A stretch of 64,000 nucleotides of DNA, taken from the NCBI GenBank assembly GCA_964016885.1, contig OZ024742.1, forward strand, positions 307,768,001 to 307,832,000, given 5' to 3'. Every line of letters begins with the position of its first letter. Position 1 is the first letter of the stretch. The notes under the pieces were generated by a model. That model saw only the letters and a program-made list of their open reading frames with translations, had not been told where the DNA came from and searched no databases. This DNA is from Eledone cirrhosa (taxonomy: Eukaryota). Below, one piece after another: positions 7,711 to 62,720 of this stretch. Both the position numbers and the translations under genes were made by a program.

Positions 7711-8044
7711 CAAGAGGAGTTGTCACATCACCAACCATGACAACAAGGACGATGACAACACCAGGTGCAATAATTGATGTAATACACGATGAATTATGTA
7801 GCATAAAATTTAATTTTATTTTCACTTGTTTCTACAGAGAATCAAATTAAATTTATCAATATTTCAACAGTCAACATATGATTTTCTTTACAACCTTCCC
7901 CTTTACTCCCCTGCATCTAACTTTCTTGTCTTTGTTTCTTTTTCATCTTTTTCGCCTTGTTTTCTCAGCAATGTTTGGTTTGTATTGCAGAATATCATCA
8001 ATAAAAAAGCTGTAGAAAATTTGATTCAACAAAAGCGTTCCCAG

Positions 8045-8430
8045 CTTCTTCTTCTTCTCCCCTCCACCCCTTCTTCTTCTTCCCCTCCTCCTTCTCCTTC
8101 TCCTCCTCCTCCTCCTTCTGCCCACCCGTCCCTCCCTTCCTCTCCCCCTTCTTCTTTCCCATCCCCTTGCCCCTCCCCATTCTTCTTCTTCTTCTTCTTC
8201 TTCTTCTTCTTCTTCTTCTTCTTCTTCTTCTTCTTCTTCTTCTTCTTCTTCTTCTTCTTCTTCTTCGTCTCCTTCTCCCCCCCTCTCTCTCTGTCAATCT
8301 ATATCTGCCTCTCTATCCCTGTATCTTGAACTCACTGTTTCTCTCATTTTCCATCTTTCCATCTTTCTTTCTGACTGTCTGTCAGGTATGTCTGTCGGCC
8401 CGATATCTCTCCCCCTCCTTCTTCTCCTCT

Positions 8431-8503
<73 letters not shown>

Positions 8504-8590
8504 TCTCTCTAACTCTCTCTCTCTCTCTCACACAGACTCATAAATCTCTATCTATCTATCTATCTATCTATCTACTTATCTATCTATCTA
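8045..8590. repeat. Pyrimidine-rich compound microsatellite (CTT)n, (CT)n, (TATC)n
   Basis: Direct reading; (TATC)n at 8549-8590 is the left edge of the LINE array. Confidence 0.95.
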
Positions 8591-8698
8591 TTTTAAATTT
8601 TATATTTCTTATTTGTTTTATATTTGTTATTTGTTATCTTTACTCGCCTTTTTGTATTTGTCCCCTTCTTTTGCGCCCTCTTGACAATAAATAGAAAT
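8591..8698 (+). mobile_element. Tx1-like LINE, 3' UTR-only fragment (insertion 0)
   Basis: tgtatttgtcccc..gcgccc..aataaatagaaat-(TATC)n, same terminus as the long copies. Confidence 0.7.
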
Positions 8699-8937
8699 AT
8701 ATCTATCTATCTATCTATTATTTCCTGATCGATAGACGTGTGTCACTTCGCTGCGAAGTTTTTACGGATTTACTATACAAAAAACTGTAAGTTCATTGTT
8801 GAATTTGATAGTGTTGTTTAGCTTGACCCCTCGTCTGGGCTTTCAGACAGTCGGTTAACCCATTTTCGCCACTTTAGGGGCGAAATTTGCATTTGAAAAA
8901 TTTGCTGTGAAAAATTATTTACATTTTAAATTCAGTA

Positions 8938-10755
8938 ATGGATGCCATTACTACTACACATTCAACTATGAATGCCGCGCCCACTAAGAAAGGTGGTGGA
9001 GAGGAAGTAAGAGTAGAAAGCTCGCAGCCTTCCCCCCTCACCTTTTAGAAAGACGTTGTGAACGTCGACATGTTTGAGAAGCACGTAAACACGGGATCAA
9101 ACCTGAACAGTAATAACAACAGCAACCAGAACAACAATGACAACAACACCACAACCAACAACAGCAACAGTAACAACACCAACACCATGAAAAATGCAAA
9201 CGACACCAACCAGAACAATATCAATAACAAGGACAACAACAATAACAATGGTGAAAACAACACCATCACCAACAACAACAAGGAAGACACCAACACCAAA
9301 ATGAACAACCCCACGACCAAAATTTCTTTTGCACAAACTGTCTAAAAGACAGAAATGTATACACCAATTGAAAACTATAGTTTTCAGGACAATCTCAAAC
9401 TCCACCAGAAAACCAGCTCAATTAACGAAAAATGAAATTGAGCTGGTTCTAAGAAACTACATTACCTTCATACAGAAGGGAAAACTCTTCGGGAGTTTAT
9501 CAGTGATAATGAAAGATCAATTAAAGGCACAGAAATATGCTGTGTCGCCAATTGTGCCCCCCCCTCTACAGCTTCCCCCCAGATATATGGGAAAAAGGAC
9601 TAAAAAAATAAGAGTGTCAAGTATTAAACCAAATGTAAATATTTGGTGCATATTATGTGGCTTCATCAACTTTGATGAAGACACATTAATTTCAATAGGA
9701 AGGTCTTCCAGGGGCGTATTTGGTGGTACTAGCCTAGAAGTTCTGGTCCAAATGTGGCCAGAACGAATAGCTAGAATACCACAACGTGTGCCTCTAGACG
9801 GAATTTCCTATATAAACATTTCTGTTGAGAGTAGGAGGCCTTCATGTTACCACTGTTTAAGCAGTGGTCACCTGAGGGCTTCCTGTCCTCAGTTAACTGT
9901 GCTGAAAGAAAAGGCACTACTGCCGACGCCCAACACAACAACATAACCACCACCACCACCACCACCACCACCACCACCACCACCATCACCACCACAACAA
10001 CAACAACAACAACACACACAAATAACCAAAACAAACCAAACCGCAAACACAGTCCCACCCAACCCCTCCCCACCTAAAACAACTTCAAAAATGCCCACAA
10101 GCAAAACAGCTCCCCAAAACCTACACCACCCAATCATACAGACAGCACAACGGACGGGGCCCCTTCATCATCACTCAGTGATGATGAGGGAGAGCGCCTC
10201 CGCTCCAAAAGAAAGAAAAAAAGACATAACACGAAAAAGGCAACAAACACACAACCACCAACACAAACAACACAAACATTACAACCCCCCCCCTCCTGAA
10301 AACAAAAAAACAACACTCCAAACACAAACACCTACAATAAAACGAAAACATACACAAGAACAACAGACAAAAACCAACACAACAAGAACATTACACATAC
10401 ACATACATAAATACTGAAAACAAAGGTCATCTCCAAAAACCCTGCGGTAAAAACTAAAGGGAAAACTTTTACAAACTGTTTGGAAAAACCAAACTTAAAA
10501 ATGATTAGGGTCCTGATGGACACATATAGGTCACTAAAAGAAAACTATGATAAGGACGTGGGGAATTCATGCGTCAAACCCATGAACCGCGTCCTTTTGA
10601 AATGTTTTCCCACCCCCAACCCCCACCAACCCAGACACCCCACCCCACCAGGCATTTCCTTCCCCACCCCACCAGAAACCACCACCCTACCAAACGACCC
10701 CTCCAACACCCCCATGGACATTGTGCAGCCTGGTCTCCAGGAAGCGAGGAGGTAA
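8938..10755 (+). pseudogene. ORF1 (gag-like, CCHC knuckle) of copy A, disrupted
   Basis: MDAITT start, SFAQTV motif, CYHCLSSGHLRASC (CX2CX4HX4C); stops and frameshifts. Confidence 0.85.
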
Positions 10756-10796
10756 TTGAATTATTTCCCCTTCTTTTCTAACTCTTCCTCACCAAC

Positions 10797-13700
10797 ATGG
10801 GCAATATAAGAGTCGGATGTGTGAATGTGCGCGGCTTGGGGATCACCTGGAAACAGGGCAAACTCTTAAATGAGCTCAGGTCGCATAGTATGGATGTGGC
10901 AGTCATTTGCGAGTCCAGGATCCACAGCGAGCGACAGCTGGCCCCCATCTTCGACCACTTTGAGATCTACGCATCTCTCTGTCAGCCGGGAGGTGGGCGC
11001 GGAGTTGCCGTTTTGCTGCGGAATCACCTGGACCTCGTACACAGATGGTACATCTGGACCCGGAGTGTCGACTGGTGGTCCTAGACGTCAGCAGTACTGA
11101 AGGTGGAGCCTTCAGACTTGTGGCCGTATATGCCCCATCCGGGACATCGCGGCCAGACTTCTTCAAACGTCTGGAGACTTTTCTGGGAACGTCTCGCTCC
11201 TTGCTTTTAGTGGGGGACTGGAATGGAATCCTAGATACACGTTTGGATTATGTGGGAGCATGTCCCGATAGAGGGGGGGGGGTGTAACAGCCTCAAACAG
11301 TTAATCGGTCGATTTCAACTGGCCGATAGATACCGACTAGATTTCCCGACCGCGCCATTGCGGATGTGGATGAACCGCAGCGAGACATCTAGATGGTACT
11401 TAGGTTTCTAATTAGAGATAGGGATAGGGACATATTAAGCTGTCCACACATGTTCATGGTTGCCTATTCAGATCACAAACTAGTGACCTGCATAGTCAAC
11501 CTTGATAGAACCCATAGGCAGGGACCCGGCTACTGGAAGCTGAACCTGTCGTTACCGACACGTAAACCATACAGTAGTCGGATTAACACTTTAGTTAAGC
11601 AGCAGTTGACGGGGCAATTGTCAACAACAGGTGGTGGTGCTCTATTAAAAGAACAATTAGATTATAATCGATAGGCTTTCGTAAAGAACTAGCGTTAGAT
11701 ATGAATAAGACAGAAAAGGAACTGGTAGATAAAGTAGAAGAGGCGATTAGGAGTGGCAGCGTAGCTAACGTGCTAGCGACAAGAACGGCCCTGAACCAGT
11801 TCATCGACGCAAAGCACGAAAGCTGAGTTGTCAGGAGTAAAATACGTGCTCTGGGAAACGAGGGGGGCCAAGGCTGTTATCTGGGCCCAAGTGACAGAGG
11901 CGAAAAGTGGATTCAAGTCCACGATTCTGTCTTTGAAGGATCAATACGGACGCGTCATACTTGAACCAGAGAAGATGTGCGCGGCACTTTGCACAACTAT
12001 TCGAGCAGAGTGGATTTCGGTCCATACCTCGACGGCCTGCCGCGACTCACGGACGAGGATGCGAAATCCTGCGAACGGCCGATTTCGGCCGCTGAGATAG
12101 GGGACGCGTTGAGCCAATGCGGCAAACTCAAATCGCCGGGTCTCCACGGTCTACCCTACGAATTTTACGTAGCAATGCCGGACTTGTTCTCCGATCTCCT
12201 CGAAGCGGTCTACTGCAACTAGCAGCAGAACGGGAGAATTCCCAGTTCTGTGACCAAGGGCGTAGTCACGCTAGTCAGAAAGGTCGAGAACAAGAGGGAC
12301 CACATAGGTACCTTCAGGCCCATAATTACAGATTTTGGTCAAGGTATCAGCAAAGAAGCTGGCGCTTGTCGTCCGGAACCTTGTGGGAGAAGCGCAGACG
12401 TGCGCAATCCCGACCAGGTCCATACACGACAACCTCCACCTCATGCGATACATCGTAGACAGGGTTGGGGACCTGATCAACTTGGATTAATCTAATGCGT
12501 TCGATAGGGTTGACCACCATTACCTGGATGCGGTGTTCGCGACGGCAGGCTTCGGACCCATGTTCAGGGGCTGGATTGCTGCAATGCACAGCAGCAACAT
12601 CTGATCAAGGGGCAAGGTGAATGGCTACCTTTCGGAGCCGTTCCAAATCACGCGATCCATCCGATAGGGATGCCCTCTCCCCTCCATACTGTATGTACTG
12701 ACTCTCGAGCCACTACTGCGGAAGTTGGAGTGGATGCAGGGCACCCCGTTGGAACCGGGACTGCGAAAATTGGCGACGTCACAGTAATGGTGTCGACGTC
12801 ACAGTAATGGTGTCGACGACGTCACAGTAATGGTGTCGAGCACCTCGCAAATAAGGGAGGTCGGCACCTTACTGAACGAGTACGAAAGGTTCACGGGAGC
12901 GAAGCTGAACCGGGACAAGTCCGTCGGTTTGCGTCGTCGGACGCTGGACGGAGGCACCGGTGAAGCTGCTCGAGGTCTGATTCGGACGGGGCCTCCAGGT
13001 GGAGAAAAACTAGAACGAGGTGATGGCCAAGGTGTTTGCGCTCGCCCAGAAGTGGGCCGAGTGCAAAGTATCCTTGAAAGGTCGAGCGGAGGTGGCGAAC
13101 GCTTTCATAGCGTCTGTCATCTACTAACGCTTGACCGTCATGCCTTTTCCAAGTAAAACGCTCACCAAAATGGAGCGTGCGCTCTTCCGATTCCTTTGGA
13201 AGAAGCGGGCTCCTTTGGTGAGAAGATCCATCTGCTGTCAACACCCTTCGAACGGAGGGCTGGGGTTGCCGTGGCTGACGATGCGCAAACACGTACTAAG
13301 GCTTCGGCACCTCCATGTATTCCTCAACGAACAACCGGTGTGGGCCCCGTTCATGAGGCGAGCCTTCCCGCGACTCGTCTCGCTGACCGAGCTGCAATCA
13401 TGGGTCAAGCAAAGATCGAGGAAAATGGGCGACTGGCACATCGAATGTGCTCAGGCGCTCACAGTCCTCTGGCAAACGGACCCGGCAATCAGTGGAGACT
13501 CCACCTCGTCATTCTATAGAGGGTTAGTCCGCAGCAAGTGCGACGACACTCTCAGAGAAACTCTAGGCGTAGAGGAAGACGAACTGGCCAGTCTGTTCGG
13601 TAGGACCTTCCGCTCGGGACCGATGGACAACTTCCAAAAGTCCCTGGTCTGGCAGTGCTACCGAGGAGCTCTACCTGTTCGAGACAAGCTCTACAAACAC

Positions 13701-14132
13701 GGGGCAGGGATCCCTCGAAAAAGATCTGTGCGGGACGAATAAACCGTCGCGCACGCATTCGTACACTGCCCAGGCGTTACCGACCTGTGGAGCTATGCAG
13801 AACGACTACTGTCGCGGGTGGGACAAATCCGGTTGACCACCGAGTACATTATTGTGATCAAACCGCCACCTTCCTTCAAAAACGAAGGAGAGGCGGTTTT
13901 CCTCTGTGTAATGGCCATGGTGAAAGAGCCTATATGGTGGACGAGACTGAAAGGGCTGAGGTCAAACACCTTTCTCTCCGGCGAACAACTGGTTCGCTTC
14001 TTCAAATATCATTTTAGAAGAAGAATCAGAGTGGAGAGAGAGGTGCTGCACCCCAGTAAATTTTACGAAAGGTGGGTGAATGTGGCAAGGATGGTCCGAG
14101 GGTTTGGGCGTTCTCTTTATATGAGCCTGTAG
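10797..14132 (+). pseudogene. ORF2 (APE endonuclease + reverse transcriptase) of copy A, disrupted
   Basis: VGCVNVRGL, VAVYAP, VGDWN, SDHKLV, GPGYWKLN, KSPGLHGLP; many frameshifts. Confidence 0.9.
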
Positions 14133-14365
14133 GTCAAGGAAGAAGAGAAAGAGAGGAGAGGAGTGCTCGCTCTTCGTGCTCCTTGAGATGAGGGTTGTAC
14201 ATTTATTTTCGGGGTGTGTGCAACCCATTTGTAACGCCTCCCCCTATTGGGGATTTCGTTTGTTTTATTCATCATTTTTGTTATATATTTTTACACGCCT
14301 TGTATTTGTCCACATCTTTTGCGCCCTTGTGGCAAATAAAGAAATCTATCTATCTATCTATCTAT

Positions 14366-14742
14366 TCTTTTTTTCAAATACCACTTTGGAAGAAGAATCA
14401 GAATGGAGGGAGAGGACCTGTACCCCAGCAAGTTTTATGAAAGGTGGGTGAAAGTGGCGAGAATGGCCCGAGTGAATGGGCCTTCTCTCTATATCAGCCT
14501 GTAGGTTGAGGAAAAGGAGGAGGAGCGGAAATGAGTACAAACTCTTCGTACTCCTGGAGATGAGGGTTGCACATTTTTTCGGGGGTATGTATTACCCATA
14601 TGAACTGTCTCCACCTATTGGGGAAAATCGACTAATTTTTTAAATTGCATTTGTGATAACATTTAACACGTTTTTATTGTATGTAAACTTCCCCCTTTGT
14701 ATTTGTCCTCTTCTTTTGTGCCCCTGTGGCTAATAAAGAAAT
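14366..14742 (+). mobile_element. Tx1-like LINE 5'-truncated copy B
   Basis: End of ORF2 plus 3' UTR, flanked by (TATC)n. Confidence 0.85.
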
Positions 14743-14743
14743 A

Positions 14744-14800
<57 letters not shown>

Positions 14801-15016
14801 CTCTTTCTGTCTGACGTGTGGAACATCGCCGGTAAGCTTTTTTGTTAATTTCTATAAAAAAACCGAACTAACTGTTTGAAAAAACATAACACTTTGTTGA
14901 TTAACCCCCAAGCTGAATTGTCAGCTGGGTGGTAATCCCATTTTTCGCCCCTGTAGGGGTGAAAATTTTATTTTAAAAATTTGTTTTAAAATATTAGATT
15001 TTACAAACTAAATAAC

Positions 15017-16937
15017 TTGAGCAACACAAGAATGCTGGAGAACGTTAATAGAGAAAAGAGAGAGAAAGAGGCAGATATTAACGTTATATCTGCTTCTGTT
15101 ACTATGGACGTCGCCATAGATACAAGTGTCAACAAAGATAAAAATATATTAATACTTGAAAATTTTAAAATTTCTACCGTCGAAGCGGAGAAAAATAACA
15201 ATAACACACAGGAAAACACAGGAATTAAACCCATTAACATACACATGAAAAAGACATCAACAACTCTACAGATACAGATACACATAAAGTTTCACCTCGA
15301 CAAGGAACTGAGATTTCCAACAACGATAATAACAACATCAACAGCAACACCACAAAAAAAGAAAATGTCTTTCGCTGAAACGGTGAACAAAAAACAAGAT
15401 TTTATAAATCTTGATATCTCCAACGCAAGAGATATGCTCGAGCAAGGGAGAAAATTTGTAACTTTCGAAGAAAGGGGTGGGTTTAGAATTAACTCACCCT
15501 TTGAAATAAAGGAAGACACAATCCGCAGATCAGTCACTTTTAGGACTGTGTCAAATTCGACAAGAAAGCCGACATTTGTTAATCAAGCAGATATAGAAGA
15601 TACTTTCAAGGAAATTCTAGCAAGTGTCGATTTTCTCCAGCGAGGAAAACAGTACGGAAGTGTTTCCGTACTGTTTAAAAGCGAGGCACTCGCCCCCAAA
15701 AAATCTGTGACACCAAGTGTGTCAAAAGCATACACCTTTTTTCCTACATACATGGGGAAAAGGACACAAAAAATAAAAATTAAAAACATACCTCCAAACA
15801 TTAACATCTGGTGGATCTTGGCAGGCTTTTGTAGAACCAGAAACAGATATGATACTTTCAATACGAAAATCTATTCGACAAAGGTGGGCGGGCACAGATT
15901 TGGAGATTCTGTTGCAAATGAAACCGGAGAGAATCTCCAAAATACCCGAAAGAGCCGTTATTGATAATAACAACAAAATAAACATTTCGGTAGAAGGACG
16001 AAAATTTCATTGCTTTCACCTAAAAGCAATGAATTTCACCTAAAAGCAATGAAATTTCATTGCTTTCACCTAAAAGCCTCTTGTCCACAAACACACAACA
16101 ATAACATCATAAAAAAACGCTATTACCAACACCAACACCAAAACAACCACCACCACCACAAGTACAACGACAGACGAAACGAGCAACCACACCAAAACAA
16201 ATAGACACTCAACCAACAACAACAGAAAAATCAGAGACAACACCCCTGAAGAACACAGCCCCACTCCATCCCACTCCATCAAACACTACCACAAACACAT
16301 ACTGAAACACCACCACCACACAACATACCCTTACCCCACACACCTGACGATGATTATTCATCGACGGATGAAGCTGCTTCTCCTTCTTTAAGTGAAGAAG
16401 AGGCAGAACCTCGTAAATCTAAAAAACAAAAAAAGAGACACCACAAAACCCCCAAAACTCAATCACCAACACCAACACACAACCAGAGACACAAACAACA
16501 ACACAAACAACACCACAGTCAAACATCCCCCTATCAGCAAAACCAGCACCAACACCACCCCAAACACAAGCACCCACCATAAAAAGAAAACTCGCGGACG
16601 AACAACAAACTAAAACAACACAACAAAAACACAAACAACAATACGCATATATCAACACAAACAACAAGAGTTTGATGGAGGTCATCTCCCCAAACCCCAA
16701 GGTGGAGATGGAGGGCAAAACTTTCGTCAAGGCAGAATCGTCTCCACACCTTAAACTTATAAGGGTTTCTATGGAAACCTATAAAGACCTAAAAAATAAA
16801 TTTTCACTGGACGTGGGCAACCCCTGCACCAAACCCATCAACTGCGTCCTGTTAAAATGTTTCCCACCCCACCCAACACCCCATCCGGCACCCAAATGGA
16901 GATTGAACAACCCGATCTCCAGGAAACGAAAAGGTAA
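15017..16937 (+). pseudogene. ORF1 of copy C, disrupted
   Basis: MSFAETV and VTFRTVSNSTRKP homologous to A and D; ends QPDLQETKR* like QPGLQEARR* in A. Confidence 0.8.
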
Positions 16938-16976
16938 GTGCCTTTCGTCCTTTTTCTCCAACTTTTCTTCACCAAC

Positions 16977-19900
16977 ATGGCTAGTTTACGAGTTGGAACC
17001 GTGAATGTGCGTAGCCTAGGGATGCCCTGGAAACGGCCAATTTTTAAACGACCTTAGGTCACACAGTATGGATGTGATAGCCATCACCGAGTCCAGGATC
17101 CACAACAGACAGCAACTAACCCCCATCTTTGAGATCTACGCATCTCTCTGTCAGCCAGGGGGTGGAGGTGGAGTCGCTGTCATGTTTCGGAAAAACCGGG
17201 ACGTCGGAGTACAGCAAGTACACTTGGACCCGGAGGGTAGACTGGTAGTCCTAGACGTGAACAGTATCGGAGGTGGAGCCTTCAGACTGGTGGCCGTTTA
17301 TGCCCGACAGGGCAATCGCAATCACGGCCAGACTTCTTTAAGCGTCTAGAGTCTTTTCTGGGAACGTCTCACTCTACTTTTAGTGGGGGACTAGAATGGT
17401 ATCCTAGATGCACGATGGGACTATGTGGGAGTATGTCCCAGTTGAGCGAGGTGCAACAGCCTCAAAACCTTAATCCGCCAATTCCAACTGTAGAGAAAAA
17501 CAGAATAGAAAAAGAACTAGTAGCCAAGGTAGAGGAGGCACTTAGAAGTGGCAACGCGGCTAGAGTGTTAGCGTCGAGAACGGCACTGGAGCAGTTCTTC
17601 GATGCGAAACACGAAGGCTGCGTGGTCAGAAGCAAAACACGTGCTCTAGGAAACGAAGGAGCGAAAGCTCTCAGCTGGGCCCGAGTGGCGGAGGCAAAAA
17701 GTGGCAACAAGTCCACGATTCGGTCTTTGAAAGACCAAAACGGACGCGTGCTACTTGACCCCAAGCAAATGTGCGCGGCCTTTCAGCGGCACTTTGCGCG
17801 ACTGTTTGAGCAGAACGACGGTGAGCCGAACGGGGCAATGGACTTTAGTTCATACCTCAACGGCCTGCCGCGTCTATCGAACACGGACGCCGAGTTCTGC
17901 GAAAGACCGATCACGGACACTGAGATACGGGACGCTCTGGGCTGCTGCGGGAAACGCAAGTCACCCGGTCTAGATGGCCTACCCTACGAATTTTACATAG
18001 GCATGCCGGACTTGTTCTCTGGCGTCCTCGAAGCCGTCTACTGCAATTGGCAGCAGAACGGGAGAATTCCCAGTTCTGCAGGCAAGGGCGTAGTAACGCT
18101 GATCAGGAAAGACGAGAACAAGGGGGACGAAATTAACAACTTCAGGCCCATAACTCTGCTCAACACAGAGTTAAAGATTTTGGCCGAGGTGCTAGCGACG
18201 AGGTCGGCGCTTGTCGTCGAGAACCTGGTAGGGAAAGCGCAAACGTGTGCAATCCCGACCAGGTCCATACACGACAACCTCCACCTCATGCGATACATCA
18301 TAGAGAGGGTGGGTAGTAAACCCGGCTTCGGTGGGGCTCTGATCAACTTGGATCTGTCTAAGGCATTCGATAGGGTCGACCATCGATACTTGCAAGCGGT
18401 TCTCAAGGCGGCCGGTTTCGGTCCCGTGTTCAGAGGATGGATCGAGGCAATGCACACCAGCATCTGCTCGAGGGTCAAGGTGAACGGCTACCTATCGGAG
18501 CCGTTCGCAATCACGCGTTCCATTCGACAGGGGTGCCCTCTCTCCTCCATTCTGTATGTATTGACTCTAGAGCCACTACTGCGGAAATTGGAGCTGTTGC
18601 AGTGCATCCCTCTAGAACCGGGACTGCGCAAAGCGGCGTCGGCTTATGCCGACGACGTGACGGTAATGGTGTCGAGCACCTCGGAAATCGGGGTGATCGG
18701 CAAATTACTGAAATAATACGAAACGCTGACGGGAGCAAAACTAAACCCGGACAAGTCTGTCGATTTGCAACTCGGTACGGGGAGAGGCAAACCGATGACG
18801 TCCGACAGCGTCGTTGGACGCTGGACGGACGGACCGGTGAAATTGCTCGGGGTCTGGTTCGGTCCAGACCTCCAGGTGGAGAAAAACTGGAACGAGGTCA
18901 CGGCCAAGGTGTTTGCACTCACCCAGAAGTGGGCAGAGTGCAAACTGTCCTTGAAAGGTCAAGCGGAGGTGGCGAACACTTTCATAGCGTCCGTCATCTA
19001 CTACCGCTTGACTGTCGTGCCTTGTCCCCGTGAACACCTCGCCAAGATGGAACGCATGATCTTCCAGTTTCTGTGGAAGAAGCAGGCTCCGCTGGTGAGG
19101 ACATCCGTATGCTGTCAGCACCCTTCCAACGGAGGGCTGGGAATGCCGTGGCTGATGATGCGCAAACATGCGCTGAGGCTGCGGCATCTCCAGGTATTCC
19201 TCACCGACCCCCAACCGGTGTGGGCACCGTTTGTGAGACAGGCTTTCCCACAGCTCGTCTCGCTGACGGAGCTGCAGTCCTGGGCGAAGAAAAGACCGAA
19301 AACGATGGGCGCCTGGCACATTGAATGCGCTCAGGCGCTCACAGTCCTCTGGCAAGCGGGCGCAGCAATCAGTGGAGATTCCACTTCGACATTCTATAGA
19401 GGGATTGTACGTTACAAGGGCGACGATGTGCTCGGAGAGACTCTGGGCGTCGAAGACGATGAGCTCACCAGTCTGTTTGGTAGGACTTTCCGCCCGGGAC
19501 TTATGGACAACAGCAGTGCTACCGAGGAGCTCTACCGGTTCGTGACAAGATATACAGGCACGGACGCCCCGGCAGGGATCCTTCCAAGAGGACGTGTCCA
19601 AGATGCGCCAGGACATTGAAACAGTCTTGCACGCAATTGTACACTGCCCGGGCGTAACCGACCTGTGGAACTATGCAGAACAACTGCTGTCGCGTATGGG
19701 TCAAATCCAGTTGACTGCCGAGTCCATAGTAAGGATCAAACCGCCAGCCTCTTTCAAAAACGAAAGAGAGGCGGTTTTCCTCTGTACGGTGGCTATGGTG
19801 AAAGAAGTTATATGGTGGACGAGGTTGAGAGGACTGAGGACAGATGCCTTTCTCTCCGGACAACATTTGATTCCCTTCTTTAAGTATCACTTTAGAAGGA

Positions 19901-20010
19901 GAATCAGGCTGGAGAGAGAGGCACTGCACCCCAGTAAATTTACTGAAAGGTGGGTGAATGAAGCGAAAATGGCCCAAGTGATTGGGCTTTCTCTGTTTAT
20001 AAGCCTGTAG
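16977..20010 (+). pseudogene. ORF2 (APE-RT-zinc finger) of copy C, disrupted
   Basis: MASLRVGTVNVRSL; KSPGLDGLP, FRPITLLN, DLSKAFDRVDH, RQGCPLS, AYADDV; CPRC..ETVLHAIVHC. Confidence 0.92.
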
Positions 20011-20258
20011 GTTGAGGAAGAGAGCAAAAGGAAGAAAGGAGCACTTGCACAACACGCTCCTGGAGTTGAGGGTTGTTCTATCGACGGGGTATTATACAAC
20101 CCATTTGTGGCGCCTCCCCCCTATTGGGGATTTCGATTGTTGTAATTGTTTGTTTTTATATCTTTTACACGACTGTATGTAAAATCCCCGGCATGTCTTT
20201 GTATTGTCCCCTTTTCTTGTGCGCCCTTGTGGCTAATAAAGAAATATATCTATCTATC

Positions 20259-23200
20259 TCGGAGAAGATAGACGTGTTTCTGTTTCGCTCCTGCATTTTG
20301 TCGGAATTTATTACGAGAAACGTTAGGTTTCTTTAAGTAACTTGTTATTTGTTGTGTTTAACCCCTCGCCTGGGCCTGCAGACGTTGGGGAAAATAAATT
20401 TCGCCCCCTTTTGGGGCGAAATTTGAGAGTTATAAGTTGTCGATAAAAAGTCGTTTAGTGACAATGGACGCCATTAATACGACGCATACCACGCCCCCAA
20501 GGAAAGTGATAGAGAGAAGGTAGCAGCACAATCCTGTAAGCCTTCCCTCCTCACTCCCGCAAAAGACACCACGGAATCAAAAGAAAAAAATTGTGGAAAT
20601 GGGTGAAAACCCCAAAAGTAACAATTACATAAACAAGAACAACAATGACAATAACAACAATGACAATAACAACACAACCAACAACAGCAATAATTACAAC
20701 ACCAACGAAGGAAAAAAAGCAAGCCAACACGAATAACAACAACAACAATGATAACAACACGAAAGAAAACGGACCCACAGCTGCAGCCTCCTTGGCACAG
20801 GTGGTCTGAGAAACGCAGGCATACAAGGCACTGGACATCTCTAATGCCAAGAAATTGCTGAAAGAAGCAAGGAATTGTGTAACTTTCGGGGAAATTACCT
20901 CTCCCCCCCCCCCCCCCGAAGAAATTAGAAGGGACACAGTCCTCAGGACCGTAATCTTTAGGACAGTTTCGATCGCGACTAGGAAACCGGCCCAATTGTC
21001 CCAAAGCGAAAATGAGCTGGTCCTAAGTAGTGCCTGGAAGGATATCGCTTTCATACAAAAAGGGAAACGGTATGGAAGCATATCTGTTTTAATGCAAGAT
21101 GAAGTGGCGCCACCGAAATATTCTGTGTCGCCAATTGTATCCAAAGCATACACCTTTTTCCCCACATATTTGGGGAAAAGAACTCAAAAGATAAGAATCT
21201 CGAGCATCAGGCCAAATGCGAGAATTTGGTGGGTGCTAACGGGATTCTTAGAAGATGAGGACACAATCCTTCCGATAGGCGAATCCACCGGGGGCGTATT
21301 CGGTGGCAATAGCCTTGAAGTTCTGGTCCAAATGAGACCAGAACGGATAGCAAGAATACCGCAGCGTGTGTCCCTGGATAGAGTCGCCTTCATAAACATT
21401 TCTGTTGAGGGCAGGCAGCCTTCATGCTACCACTGTTCAAGAAGTGGTCATCTGAAGGCTTCCTGTACCCTTTTAAATGCCCCCCTCCAAAAAAAGACGC
21501 TTCTGCCCACCCCACACACAACAACACAACCACCACCAACACCACCACCACAACCACAACAACCACAACAACACAGAAAAATAACAACACAAGACACTGT
21601 CCCACCCAACCCCTCCCCACCTAAAACAAATACAAAAGCAACCACAATAAAACTCCAAAATATACCCATCCCAACAACATGGACGAGGACCCCTTATCAA
21701 CGTCACCCAGTGACGACGAGGGAGAACCCTTTCAACCGGTAAAAAGAAAGAAAAGAAGGCCCCACATTAACAAAAATGCAACAAACACACAACCACCAGC
21801 ACAAACAGAACAAACATCACAAACAAAAAAACCCACCCCTCCCGAAAACATAACACATACTAAAAAACGCAAAGACACACAAGAACAACAAATAAAAACA
21901 AACACAACACAACAAAAACAGTATACATACATCAACATAAACAACAAAACACTTGTGCAAACAATAGACAAGGACCCTTCAGTGGAAACCGAAGATATAA
22001 TGTTCACCAACGGGGCGACTAAACCGCATTTAAAAATGGTTAGGGTCCCAAGGGACACCTACGCAATGCTCAAACAGAAATTTTCCGAGGACGTGGGGAA
22101 CCCCTGTACTAGACCTAGCAACCGCGTCCTCTTGGTGAGAAGATCCATCTGCTGTCAACACCCTTCGAACGGAGGGCTGGGGAAGCCGTGGCTGACGATG
22201 CGTAGACACGCATTAAGGCTACGGCACCTCCAGGTATTCCTCACCGGTTAGCCGGTGTGGGCCCCTTTTGTGAGGCGAGCCTTTCCGAGACTCGTCTCAC
22301 TCACCGAGCTGCAATCCTGGGTCAAGCAAAGACCGAGAAAAGTGGGCGACTGGCACATCGAATGTGCCCAGGCGCTCACAGCCCTCGGGCAAGCGGATCC
22401 GGCAATCAGTGGAGACTCAACCTCAACATTCTATAGAGGGTTGGTGCGCAGCAAGTGCGACGACGCTCTCGGAGAGGCTCTGGGCATGGAAGAAGACGAG
22501 CTAGCCAGTCTGTTCGGTAGGACGTTTGGCCCGGGGCCGATGGACAACTTCCAAAAGTCCGTGGCTTGGCAGTGCTACCGAGGAGCTCTACCTGTTCGAG
22601 ACAAGCTCTACAGACACAGAAGATCTGTCCGAGATGCCTGCGTGACGAGGAAACCGTCACGCACGCATTCGTACACTTCCCGGGCGTTGCTGACCTGTGG
22701 GGTTATGTGGAACGACTACTGTCGCGGGTGTGACCAATCCGGTTGACTACCGAGTACATTGTCACGATCATACCGCCTTCCCCCTTCAAAAACGAAGGAG
22801 AGGCGGTTTTCCTCGGTGTGATAGATATGGCGAAAGACGTTGTATGGTGGACAATGTTGAAAGGACTGAGGTCAGACACTTTTGTCTCCGGCCAACAACT
22901 GGTCCTTTTTTTCAAGTACAATTTTAGAAGAAGGATCAGAATGGAGAGAGAGGTGCTCTACCCCAGCAAGTTTTATGAAAGGTGGGTGAAAGTGGCGAGA
23001 ATGGCCCGAGTGAATGGGCCTTCTCTCTATATCAGCCTGTAGGTGAGAGAGGCGAAGGATGAGGTGAGGAAGGGAACACCCCCTCTTTGTGCTCCTGAGG
23101 AGGAGGGTTGCACATTTTTTTCGGGGGTGTGTGCGACCCACGTCAACGCCCCCTCCCTATTGAGGACTTCGATTGTTGAATTTATTTGTTATATGTTTTT

Positions 23201-23283
23201 ACACGTCCCTTGAAATGTATGTAAACTCCCCCTCTTGTATTTGTCCCAATCTTTGATGCCCTGGTGGCAAATAAATAGAAAGT
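20259..23283 (+). mobile_element. Tx1-like LINE copy D with about 2.6-kb internal deletion of APE-RT
   Basis: 5' UTR and ORF1 (ATG 20464, CYHCSRSGHLKASC) join the ORF2 C-terminus at about 22130. Confidence 0.88.
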
Positions 23284-23294
23284 TATCTATCTAT

Positions 23295-23630
23295 TTTCAA
23301 ATACCACTTTGGAAGAAGAATCAGGATGGAGAGAGAGGAGCTGTACCCCAGCAAGTTTTATGAAAGGTGGGTGAAAGTGGCGAGAATGGCCTGAGTGAAT
23401 GGGCCTTCTCTCTATATCAACCTGTAGGTTGAGGAAAAGGAGGAGGAGAAGAAAGGAGTACAAACTCTTCGGACTCCTGGAGATGGGTTGCACATTTTTT
23501 CGGGGGTATGTGTTACCCATATGAACTGACTCCCCCTATTGGGGAAAATCGACTAATTTTTTAAATTGCATTTCTGATAACATTTGTATTTGTCCCCTTC
23601 TTTTGTGCCCATGTGGCTAATAAAGAAACA
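23295..23630 (+). mobile_element. Tx1-like LINE 5'-truncated copy E
   Basis: Nearly the same sequence and start as copy B; flanked by (TATC)n. Confidence 0.85.
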
Positions 23631-23649
23631 TATCTATCCATCTATCTAT

Positions 23650-23776
23650 TGTTATTTTATTTTATATATAGTTTATTGTTATTTATTAATGTTAAAGTTA
23701 TATGATTTTTATGTAAAACCCCCGCCCTAACGTCTTGTAATGTCCCATTTGTGTCCGCCCTTGTGGCAAATAAAAC
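23650..23776 (+). mobile_element. Tx1-like LINE 3' UTR-only fragment F
   Basis: atgtaaaaccccc..tgtccc..cgcccttgtggcaaataaa-(CTAT)n. Confidence 0.75.
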
Positions 23777-24562
23777 TATCTATCTATCTATCTATCTTTC
23801 TCTCTATATTTTAAATTATTCCTCTCCCTAATTTCTCTGTCTTCCTGCTAGTGCTCTCATTACATCCCAGTCTTCTCTTTTCTATTTCCTTTCACACATT
23901 CGTTCATTAAACGAATTATTATATTTTTTACACAAGATTGTAAAAGTAATTGTATTCTTATCATAATTATTGAAGTCACGAGGTTATCATGTGGCTATTT
24001 ATTATTTCGTCATTGATAACAGCCAAGTGTGGATAAAGATCTAATCAACGAGATATATCCTAATACTAGTGGCCAAATATTAATAGTTGTGATATTATGG
24101 TATTGAGTCGGTGAAGTGGAGGATGGGGGTTGGTGAATATTTGGGGAGGGAATTGATGTAGATGGTGAGCTAATTCCAGTATTTCTTTTTTTTTTTGGGG
24201 GGGGGGGTGAATAGGGGAGGAATCAGTATAATAATGAACGGAATAAGTGCGTTATCATGGTGTGATCGGTGTTAATTTACGTCTCCTCTTCTTCTTCTTC
24301 TTCTTCTTCTTCTTCTTTCGAGTTGATTAAAATATCGCATCAATCAGGTACTGGTAACGAAAGCAATCGGACAGCCCCCTTTCTTCAAAATCTCTCATAT
24401 TGTCTCTATATTAGAATCTTGGCCAAGTATAATTTATAAGAGTGTCAAGTCTACTCAGTCCTTTAGATGGACTGTGCCTTGTGACACAATAATTTACACC
24501 TAATCCTCATGAGAATTCCTTTAAGGGTACACATGTATATGTAAAGCTCAGCCACATATATC

Positions 24563-24594
<32 letters not shown>

Positions 24595-24659
24595 TATATA
24601 TACATACATATATATATACATACATATATATATACTTACATATATATTTATAAATATAT

Positions 24660-24865
24660 AACAAAGTGTGGTAAGGAACCAGATTGACAATAATAACGCA
24701 CCAGAGTACACGATACTTGGGGTAGTAGAGTGAGTAACAGGAAAAGTGTCAGGACCCCGACGGCTGAGCTCCGGCCGTTTCGACAGCTAGATCCGAACTG
24801 AATTCGGATCTAGCTGTCGAAACGGCCGGAGCTCAGCCGTCGGGGACCTGACTCTTTTCCTATTG
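24660..24865. mobile_element. Palindromic insertion of PLE-like family F2 (3' half of a hammerhead in each arm)
   Basis: About 60-bp arms around 24800; GAAA CGGCC-GGAGCTC-AGCCG TC GGGG; sits in (TA)n. Confidence 0.7.
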
Positions 24866-24875
24866 TATAAATATA

Positions 24876-24923
<48 letters not shown>

Positions 24924-24925
24924 AA

Positions 24926-25130
24926 GGCGCGTGGTTGAGTGGCAAGAGAATTGGATTCGCAATCGCGAGGTTGTGATTTCGATTCCCGGGCCGGATGATG
25001 CGTTATGTCCTTGAGCAAGACACTTTATTTCACGTTGCTCCTTCTACATGGAGTTGCGACCGATAGATAGACCCATAGAAACATTGTTTCTTTGGTCCGA
25101 TTTGACGACAGTCGATCGACTGACTATATG
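24926..25130 (+). mobile_element. tRNA-derived CORE-type SINE (family B)
   Basis: A box TGGTTGAGTGG, B-box-like TTTCGATTCCC, core tgtccttgagcaagacactt; second copy at 25639. Confidence 0.75.
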
Positions 25131-25638
25131 TGACAATATGTAAGTATGTGTATGAGTGTGTTTGTATCAAATAGTAAACTCATTATTAAGAACTATGTGT
25201 TAATTAGCCTCAATGCTACATTGACGAGACAAATATATGTATTGAACAGTATCTCATACATATTGTCATTAATTGTCTTTAATTACATTAAGCTAGCTTT
25301 ACACTGTTCTGGTCACCATAGATCATTCTTCTACTGATCAATAACTTATACTGCCTGATCTTCTTTCTTATCACTCTATCACTCTATTTCAAATTTCTGT
25401 TAATCACATCAGACAGATTTTGTCGCTTATGTTCATCTACCAAATGAACGTATACATGTATGACAGACATCCTAATACGGATTTCAATGAAATGAAGAAC
25501 GTAACACATGTTCTCAACGATATGAAGTCGTTTAAATTGCCGCCAATGGTTTTAGTTGTATAGAAGTAATGTCAGAATTCATTTTTTACCCGTGAGTGAC
25601 ATTTTAAAAAGCCTTACTTTCTTTTATATATATATGAA

Positions 25639-25850
25639 GGCGCGTGGCTGAGTGGTTAGAGAATTGGATTCACAATCTTGAGGTTGTGAGTTCGATTCCT
25701 GGACCAGGCGATGCGTTATGTCCTTGAGCAAGACACTTTATTTCACGTTGCTCCTTCTACCTGGGGTTGCGACCGATAGATAGTACTAGCAACTGGAAAG
25801 ACCAACGGAAACATTGTTTCCTCGGTCCGATTTGACAAAAGTCGATCGAT
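25639..25850 (+). mobile_element. tRNA-derived CORE-type SINE (family B)
   Basis: TGGCTGAGTGG, GAGTTCGATTCC, tgtccttgagcaagacactt. Confidence 0.8.
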
Positions 25851-25882
25851 TAAAAAAAAAAAATATATATATATATATATAT

Positions 25883-26015
25883 ATTGTTTTATTGCATTAT
25901 AGTATCTTAATGACAAGGTTATCTGCAACTTCAGACTACCTAAAGTCAAAGAGGCCCACAAAACTGGAAGGTCCAGGTCGACCTACAGGATAAAGGGGGA
26001 GGAGTTGGTGGATAA
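25883..26015 (+). mobile_element. LINE linker-region fragment, repeated at 34275-34395
   Basis: agactacctaaagtcaaagaggcccacaaaactgg shared; the longer copy translates like an APE-RT linker. Confidence 0.5.
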
Positions 26016-29173: not shown

Positions 29174-30358
<1,185 letters not shown>

Positions 30359-30362
<4 letters not shown>

Positions 30363-30475
30363 TAAGAAGAGACACTGGTCTGTTGGAGACGCAGGACATG
30401 GCAGCGATAATGAGGGACAGAGACCGCTGGAGAGAACTCATCCATGGATCTGGGGAATTTTTCCCGCTCTAGAAA
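30359..30475 (+). pseudogene. RTE LINE ORF C-terminus in sense orientation
   Basis: ILRRDTGLLETQDMAAIMRDRDRWRELI, typical RTE end, then (TA)n. Confidence 0.75.
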
Positions 30476-31149: not shown

Positions 31150-31300
31150 GAGAAAAACAAGTCATAGCCAATGGGCGTACGTCGACTGGCCATTTCATCA
31201 GAGGCATGTCTTGTCTATATAAGTGTAAATGTTCATTATAGGATGTTCAAGAAAAGTTTTAGAATGAATTGATTACATCTATCTATCTATCTATCTATCT

Positions 31301-61689: not shown

Positions 61690-62720
61690 CGTCTGTCTCA
61701 GTCTGTCGTTCTAGTTTTCAAAAAAGAAAACATATCCTTTGCAGTGAATTAATGTTCAATTTCACTCACCACTCATATCCTTAAGGTATTTGAGAGGGTG
61801 GTAAGATTTCAATTATCCCACTTCCTCGAAAGCAACAATCTGCTGGGTTCCTTGATGGTAGAGACTACCCAAGTAGCTTCTGCTTCAATTTGATGATATT
61901 CTAAAAGAAGGGCTCCAACATGGTTGTTGTAAACCTTGATTTTAGCAAAGCATTTGATAGAGTTGAGCACAGCGTCTTACTGATAAAACTATCCAACATT
62001 GGAGTCGGTGGAAAGCTACTATATTGGACTAAGACTTTCCTGATTAATAGAGCCCAGTTTGTTATAACCGAAGGAATATGATCAAGCTCAGCCAAAGTCA
62101 GTTGTGGCGTTCCACAATGCACTGTGTTGGGCACACTTCTCTTTATTATTTACATCAATATAAATAAAAGGGTGGTGGATTGGCAGTATCGGTAGAGGGT
62201 CGGACGCCATGATTTGCAGCAAAGAGTTACGGCCTTTTATGGTCTGAGTTCAAATTCCGTCGAGGTTAACTTTGCCTTTCATCCTTACGGGGTCGATAAA
62301 ATAAAGTACCAGTAATACACTGGGATAATTGCTGGCCTTGTGCCAAAAGTAGAAATAATTATTTACATCAATGACACAATAGAAGGTCGTCAACGGAGTG
62401 CGAGACATGTCTTCAATCAGAACATCTGGCTGTTATCCAAAAATATAAAACCAAAACAATATTCTAATAAACGAAGAAAAAATTGAATTAATCCACTTTG
62501 AAAAAAGGATGCAATGAAATTACCACACTTATTTTCATGTGAAACTCACCAGGCACCCAACAACAACAGAGTAATTTTTCAGGACAACCTAAGCTGGCGT
62601 ACTGACATAAATAACGATGTTGATATGGCCCACACGATACGTTCCTGGCTTCTTAGAAGTTTCTGCTCGAAAGATATTTACACCATCATCTTTTTCTTCT
62701 CTGTCTTTTCCCAGCCCCTT
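61690..62720 (+). pseudogene. CR1/L2-group LINE RT remnant interrupted by a SINE
   Basis: LDFSKAFDRVEH..LLIKL..GVGGKLL..GVPQCTVLG.LLFIIYIN|D. Confidence 0.8.
62170..62357 (+). mobile_element. SINE family A with 15-bp target-site duplication
   Basis: A and B boxes; attatttacatcaat at 62145-62159 and 62358-62372. Confidence 0.9.

Follow-up and report, generated by a model that had tools for sequence, protein, structure and literature searches.

Seven decayed L1-group retrotransposon copies stacked head-to-tail in one (TATC)n tract of Eledone cirrhosa, with a likely preference for this microsatellite as target

Seven copies of one LINE family, designated here 0, A, B, C, D, E and F, lie head-to-tail on the + strand between positions 8593 and 23775 of a 64,000-nucleotide stretch of Eledone cirrhosa DNA (hereafter, the window), as seen in the sequence, in a tract scan and in self-comparison. 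All seven copies have (TATC)n on both sides at this one locus, which raises the question of how they came to share a single microsatellite. The tract may be a target to which the elements return, a tail that they carry with them, or part of an array that grew by local duplication.

The original prediction described seven un-nested + strand copies with (TATC)n at all junctions and at both outer edges, and this layout was confirmed by the tract scan, self-comparison and a 3'-end profile built from the seven copies. In the 64-kb window, the profile matches only those seven (E <= 4e-10), with its next-best match at E 0.32, and no eighth copy was found. The array consists of the following features:

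8546..8592, + strand: left outer (TATC)n tract, 47 bp, interrupted once; upstream lies (CT)n, without an element 3' end
8593..8699, + strand: copy 0, 107 bp, 3' terminus only; blastn against the 3' end of A, E 1e-18; profile match
8700..8719, + strand: (TATC)n junction 0/A, 20 bp; last letters CTATT
8720..14343, + strand: copy A, 5,624 bp, full-length and decayed, with 5' UTR, ORF1, ORF2 and 3' UTR
14344..14366, + strand: (TATC)n junction A/B, 23 bp; last letters CTATT
14367..14743, + strand: copy B, 377 bp, 5'-truncated, with the final 44 ORF2 codons and 3' UTR
14744..14800, + strand: (TATC)n junction B/C, 57 bp
14801..20246, + strand: copy C, 5,446 bp, full-length ends, with the best-preserved RT
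20247..20259, + strand: (TATC)n junction C/D, 13 bp
20260..23283, + strand: copy D, 3,024 bp; 5' UTR and ORF1 fused near 22130 to the last third of ORF2
23284..23295, + strand: (TATC)n junction D/E, 12 bp; last letters CTATT
23296..23629, + strand: copy E, 334 bp, 5'-truncated
23630..23650, + strand: (TATC)n junction E/F, 21 bp with one substitution; last letters CTATT
23651..23775, + strand: copy F, 125 bp, 3' terminus only; blastn E 1e-11; profile match
23776..23797, + strand: right outer (TATC)n tract, 22 bp; the flank beyond it belongs to no element

The eight tracts that separate and bound the copies (47, 20, 23, 57, 13, 12, 21 and 22 bp) amount to 215 of the 15,252 bp of the array (1.4%), and none of the seven copies is nested in another. 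The probability of zero nesting is at most 2e-5 when 215 tract bases are granted at each step, insertions are forced into the array and the most favourable order is taken; that of a common orientation for all seven copies is 1/64. The right flank, 23813-24178, is matched by one contig of sequencing run X4 with 1 difference, so that X4 may come from the species of the window.

The anatomy of the copies is that of a LINE with two reading frames. ORF1 of A spans approximately 8938-10760, and its ORF2, comprising APE-RT and a C-terminal region, approximately 10798-14132. The 5' ends of A, C and D are homologous and directly abut the tract; a shared GACGTG motif lies 15, 12 and 11 nt downstream of it, respectively. 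Four of the seven copies are 5'-truncated. All seven 3' ends consist of AATAAA, an A-rich spacer of 4-10 nt and then TCTATC; GAAA occurs inside the spacer in six of them, and poly(A) is absent. The expectation that AATAAA and a short spacer would run into the tract without poly(A) is thus borne out, with the refinement that the spacer is A-rich, of defined length and mostly GAAA-containing. Pfam detects a weak zf-CCHC knuckle in ORF1 of A and D. A protein search returned 96 ORF1 relatives at E <= 0.001 and none among longer proteins; the sources that could be named, for six of eight relatives checked, are Argonauta hians, Octopus sinensis, O. vulgaris and O. bimaculoides. For ORF2, RVT_1 is recognised in copy C (17241-18713, E 1e-22), and Exo_endo_phos, the APE domain, gives two matches in the window that both fall under the curated cut-off (E 4e-4 and 0.016). 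In tblastn, ORF2 aligns collinearly with full-length relatives about 1,150 aa long; the closest of its relatives, P0001 (71% identity), carries RVT_1 and zf-RVT.

None of the seven copies is intact. In-frame stops in aligned codons number nine in A, which is also frameshifted, one in C and two in D; C is missing about 0.4 kb near 17490, where the APE domain ends, and D has lost about 2.6 kb (APE and RT) at a short imperfect microhomology; neither APE remnant of the window is intact. Two hairpins are predicted in the 5' UTR of A (8820..8890, + strand); their aligned counterparts lie at 14900-14970 (C) and 20355-20425 (D). Their covariation is weak, with two-sided change at 3 of 22 pairs among three sequences only, and at 1 of 29 pairs in the other UTR set. 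Neither a ribozyme nor any other Rfam family reaches its gathering score in 8000-26000, which leaves a 5' self-cleaving ribozyme unsupported.

Judged from these sequence features, namely an ORF2 with APE, RT and (via P0001) a C-terminal zinc-binding region, a separate ORF1 and 5' truncation, the family is an L1-group non-LTR retrotransposon. Among solved proteins, the family profile scores 408 bits against LINE-1 ORF2p and 138 bits against R2, in a comparison that held no CR1 or RTE reference. The best named ORF2 matches are two proteins of Argonauta hians at 66% and 64% aa identity (GAB1601854.1 and GAB1597330.1) and one of Acanthosepion pharaonis (P0181) at 46%. Membership in the Tx1 clade is likely; Tx1 is placed within the L1 clade in the available text of PMC3747384 and goes unmentioned in that of PMC9115989. 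For the RT trees, 197 rows were cut to 93 at 75% identity, and 61 were chosen for a careful tree, L022 being dropped for low coverage. The trees were built without named Tx1, Keno, Kibi, Koshi, Mutsu or Dewa references, and the careful tree is rooted at its midpoint only. A candidate non-L1 outgroup, taken from the window (~29800-30400), failed to align with the RT query and is part of neither tree. The careful tree (61 rows, 368 columns) unites the window copies and both Argonauta proteins in a 7-row octopod set (100/100). Its sister is a 10-row set with Acanthosepion among its members (17 rows together, 100/98), and deeper forks are unsupported. The quick tree (93 rows) places the window copies in a 68-row set with U2-splitting and 5S-flanked loci (SH-aLRT 98); turtle elements adjoin the window copies there (SH-aLRT 96), a link not recovered in the careful tree.

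Rfam searches of 40 of the 80 metagenome loci identified U2 in four, U1 in one, 5S in one and tRNA in one. At the U2 loci L002, L004 and L005 the U2 gene is cut short after about nt 48, as Keno-like elements would be expected to leave it, and at L005 a duplication of 15 bp, as read here, accompanies an A-rich tail joined to GTATCTG. None of these gene targets was found at the array: Rfam detects no U2, 5S rRNA or tRNA family in 8000-26000, and the window contains no tRNA gene that would offer a tRNA-spacer target. All eight tracts are (TATC)n, and no (TC)n, (TTC)n or (TTCC)n/(TTTC)n target occurs among them. Pattern and protein scans of viral_contigs and genome_contigs yielded no close relatives, and the metagenome matches listed were distant only. 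Among the 80 distant metagenome relatives listed, of 410 confirmed (25-42% best-segment identity), none has a 10-bp TATC/GATA run.

If (TATC)n were only an element-encoded tail, which was the refuting case named in the original prediction, an element end should stand upstream of every tract. At the left outer edge of this one locus it does not; the tract there is consequently not the tail of any visible copy, and TATC appears not to be only a tail. The 47-bp tract at 8546..8592 is probably a pre-existing target. A tail alone is also insufficient, because it would not explain why six later insertions fell at these same positions. No copy lies inside the adjacent (CT)n (8433-8529) and (TTC)n (8180-8276) or inside the many (TA)n, (CA)n and other tracts of the window; a second (TATC)n tract, 25 bp at 31276, is empty. 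Five of the six inner tracts measure 12-23 bp, a length similar to that of the duplication at the Keno-like locus L005 (15 bp), and the best direct repeats flanking the copies are 7-22 bp long, target duplications being ambiguous within a microsatellite. That the family prefers (TATC)n as its target is judged probable.

ORF1 of A and D shares 69% nt identity over 1,257 columns, and A/C and C/D align only patchily; in the 3' part of ORF2, identity among A, C and D is 81-86%. The ORF2 differences among them fall mostly at third codon positions, with dN/dS of 0.25 for A/C (707 codons), 0.29 for A/D (269) and 0.24 for C/D (267). The codons were aligned through P0001, and the removal of stop codons and of columns below 45% local identity biases dN downward. 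The range of 0.24-0.29, of the kind left by purifying selection, argues that A, C and D descend from separate once-active lineages and not from local duplication. The claim that their divergence speaks against simple tandem duplication accordingly stands for A, C and D, and it does not extend to B and E, which are 125/130 (96%) identical in the coding tail and 191/202 (95%) in the 3' UTR. E starts 6 nt downstream of the start point of B and is without 37 bp of the 3' UTR of B. These two are not necessarily independent: one of them, or both, may have arisen by duplication or conversion or may be a separate short element. As a pair they could reflect local copying, a T run at which truncation recurs, or a short form that is non-autonomous. 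In run X7, 1,360 reads (~59 starts) match B to 14695 and then continue as E from 23583, which suggests more B/E-like copies elsewhere in the genome.

The preferred reading, held with moderate confidence, is that seven decayed L1-group copies occupy one (TATC)n tract as the likely outcome of an APE preference for nicking the (GATA)n strand, followed by target-primed reverse transcription (TPRT) in a fixed orientation. The APE would nick the (GATA)n strand, at a site placed by analogy with established TPRT, and the freed 3' end would prime reverse transcription at the A-rich 3' end of the RNA, which would fix the orientation. Second-strand cleavage would then duplicate some 12-20 bp of the tract, a length suggested by the tract lengths, leaving TATC on both sides and thus renewing the target, so that later copies would stack between earlier ones and not inside them. 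The shorter copies would be 5'-truncated products; C and D have lost internal segments.

Two other explanations deserve weighing against this one. The array could be a local accident, in which a TATC-tailed family that inserts widely left copies here that were multiplied by unequal crossing-over or gene conversion. The near-identity of B and E, which are truncated 6 nt apart and each follow a long copy, would be explained in this way, as would the alignment of A+B with the 3' part of D+E (82% over 1,589 columns) and the CTATT ending common to five of the seven 5' junctions. CTATT carried along by target duplications would fit copies 0, A and perhaps E, and does not fit B and F. However, A and D are only 85-87% identical where a block duplication would have copied them along with B and E at 95%, and block copying of A+B into D+E was rejected on this comparison. 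The dN/dS values are likewise unlike the neutral decay of duplicates, the left outer tract precedes any element, and copies 0 and F each share about 80% identity with every other copy. A purely local origin is therefore judged very unlikely.

The other explanation retains repeated insertion and assigns the choice of site to the RNA. The transcript would run into (UAUC)n, the nick would come from a relaxed nuclease or arise spontaneously, and priming would succeed only where the (GATA)n strand pairs with the RNA tail. Such pairing would account equally well for the fixed orientation, and it is consistent with the absence of poly(A) and with the position of AATAAA 4-10 nt before the tract, from which a transcript processed downstream would presumably end within the tract. 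On the other hand, the spacer is A-rich like the tail of L005, whose A-rich run joins the U2 target directly, and the available text of two reviews credits site choice by APE elements mainly to the endonuclease (PMC4494074, PMC3812793). Homing guided by the tail is thus considered unlikely, although the two modes are not mutually exclusive. Of the proposed strand- and sequence-specific reuse of the tract by an APE, what the local evidence supports is that several lineages inserted repeatedly, and in one strand orientation only, into a single (TATC)n tract; the cause may be the nuclease or RNA-target pairing, and nuclease specificity is regarded, with some reservation, as the main one.

The preferred reading, insertion directed by the APE, finds its nearest counterparts in the Tx1 families Kibi, in (TC)n, and Koshi, in (TTC)n, of teleosts and in crocodilian Tx1 families in (TTCC)n/(TTTC)n (PMC4494074, whose supplements may list further Tx1 targets). 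These too are APE-RT LINEs in the pyrimidine-rich strand of a microsatellite and likely belong to the same clade, whereas the unit here is TATC and the host a cephalopod, the likeness being judged from published descriptions. In the available text of the same paper, a target preference is accepted when the target occurs in over 20% of flanks genome-wide. Keno, represented by the U2 loci L002, L004, L005 and L006, shares an L1-group ORF2 and an AATAAA/ATTAAA with a short A-rich tail joined to the target, but its target is a gene and not a microsatellite, ORF2 identity is only 29-34%, and a sister relationship is without support. The 3' junction of the Keno-like L005 contains TATCT, as does (TATC)n, and its duplication is about 15 bp; a 5-mer from one locus may match by chance. 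Tandem stacking through a renewed target has a parallel in SINEU-3 and Tx1-Mar of crocodilians, where sequential insertion yields tandem copies that sandwich the target site duplication (PMC4494074), although there SINEs form the stack and a Mariner transposon serves as target. More distantly, the microsatellite targets ACAY, AC, TC, TTC and TAA are on record (PMC3812793), as are a (TG)n target and tandem Utopia insertions (PMC4640811). Waldo (ACAY), Mino (AC), Dong (TAA) and Togen (TG) resemble the present family in homing to an abundant repeat (PMC3812793, PMC4640811, available text), and differ in repeat unit and in clade, Waldo and Mino belonging to R1, Togen being NeSL-related and Dong belonging to R4. 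The elements of Argonauta hians and Acanthosepion pharaonis and the Octopus ORF1-like proteins fall in the same clade as the window copies and are annotated as hypothetical proteins.

The family is abundant in sequencing runs of three organism labels. At 80% likeness, it matches 60,471 of 16,517,967 contigs in X4, 130,370 of 17,641,350 contigs in X2, 6,735 of 8,254,286 contigs in X1 and 371,249 of 12,467,656 reads in X7. The runs used were X1 (word share 0.19), X2 (0.09), X4 and X7, and those left out X3 (0.07), X5, X6, X8 and X9. Depth over ORF2 and the 3' ends exceeds that over the 5' ends, summed contig depth not being equivalent to copy number. Reads and contigs were placed on 8530-24280 with 605 letters at repeats skipped, which makes the placement uninformative on flanks; none of the 24 loose ends listed, with a further 16,647 outside that listing, falls at an element boundary.

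Microsatellite-targeting Tx1 families and tandem insertions sharing a target duplication have already been published (PMC4494074, available text), and with strategy and stacking known the surprise is moderate; the (TATC)n unit and the cephalopod lineage appear unreported in the literature searched. Repbase or Dfam might already list the family and its target among the Tx1 families of cephalopods, which would bear on novelty and not on mechanism. In favour of such a record, 80 L1-Tx1 consensus families have been annotated in Octopus vulgaris, 13 of them recently active with 421 insertions (PMC13282606); against it, the main text of that paper, as available, does not contain the word "target", nor one supplement the words "TATC", "GATA" or "target", and a literature search returned no TATC/GATA-targeting LINE. 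That search covered published literature outside most subscription journals, Repbase and Dfam. An existing record is, on balance, possible though doubtful.

It is intriguing to hypothesize a broader picture, which we regard as distinctly improbable at present: a cephalopod-wide Tx1 lineage, active through several octopod subfamilies, would target GATA microsatellites throughout the genome, its nuclease recognising the TATCT core that U2-targeting Keno would also read, and would renew its target, build arrays and mobilise a non-autonomous 3' derivative of about 350 bp, of the B/E type. Were this true, the lineage would be an unrecognised shaper of octopod GATA repeats and would offer a natural switch from a gene to a microsatellite target. 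More immediately, if genome-wide flanks confirm the preference seen at this locus, the tetranucleotide target (TATC)n/(GATA)n and a cephalopod lineage would join the short list of microsatellite-homing LINEs. Confirmation would also provide another APE domain for studying changes of target specificity, a process described as "not well understood" in the available text of PMC3812793, and would carry a caution that GATA microsatellite markers of octopods can sit at the ends of LINEs.

At five of the seven 5' junctions between the (TATC)n tracts and the LINE copies, the tract ends out of phase, as CTATT (8592, 8719, 14366, 23295 and 23650). At 20253-20272 and 8712-8737, where copies D and A follow their tracts, the opening bases of the copy contain GATAGA, complementary to the tract upstream, with a 7-bp stem in D; C lacks it.

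Two of the 5'-truncated copies, B (14367-14743) and E (23296-23629), share 95-96% identity, and their starts lie 6 nt from each other; the pair may represent a short non-autonomous form derived from the 3' end of the LINE. Copy D (20260-23283) retains the 5' UTR, ORF1 and the 3' third of ORF2, with a short microhomology at the joint, and could be the product of a post-insertion deletion or else an ORF1-only non-autonomous form. Tandem duplications inside the copies, and other features in the window, are as follows.

12774-12839, in ORF2 of A, short local tandem duplication with units of 20-23 bp
16014-16077, in ORF1 of C, short local tandem duplication with units of 20-23 bp
24744-24856, nearly perfect palindrome, with self-complementarity at 106 of its 113 bases
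about 24924-25120, tRNA-like SINE copy, similar to the next
about 25637-25850, tRNA-like SINE copy, similar to the preceding one
29770-30381, - strand, fragment of another, distant RT-encoding element, in the 24-33% range to ORF2 queries
61857-62171, + strand, fragment of another, distant RT-encoding element, in the same 24-33% range

The palindrome, for which all miRNA matches in an Rfam scan were sub-threshold, is possibly a MITE-like element. Immediately before each SINE copy stands a run of (TA)n or (TG)n.

Among the metagenome matches listed, L1-group elements split U2 genes on four contigs (L002, L004, L005, L006) and are Keno-like, resembling the U2 snRNA-targeting Tx1 element, and on others (L011, L016 and L018; L020) they lie beside 5S rRNA or U1 sequence. 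Within the P0050 cluster of related ORF2 proteins, five members have the same listed length of longest contig, 26,301 bp, and this equal length hints at a similar array in the sister lineage.
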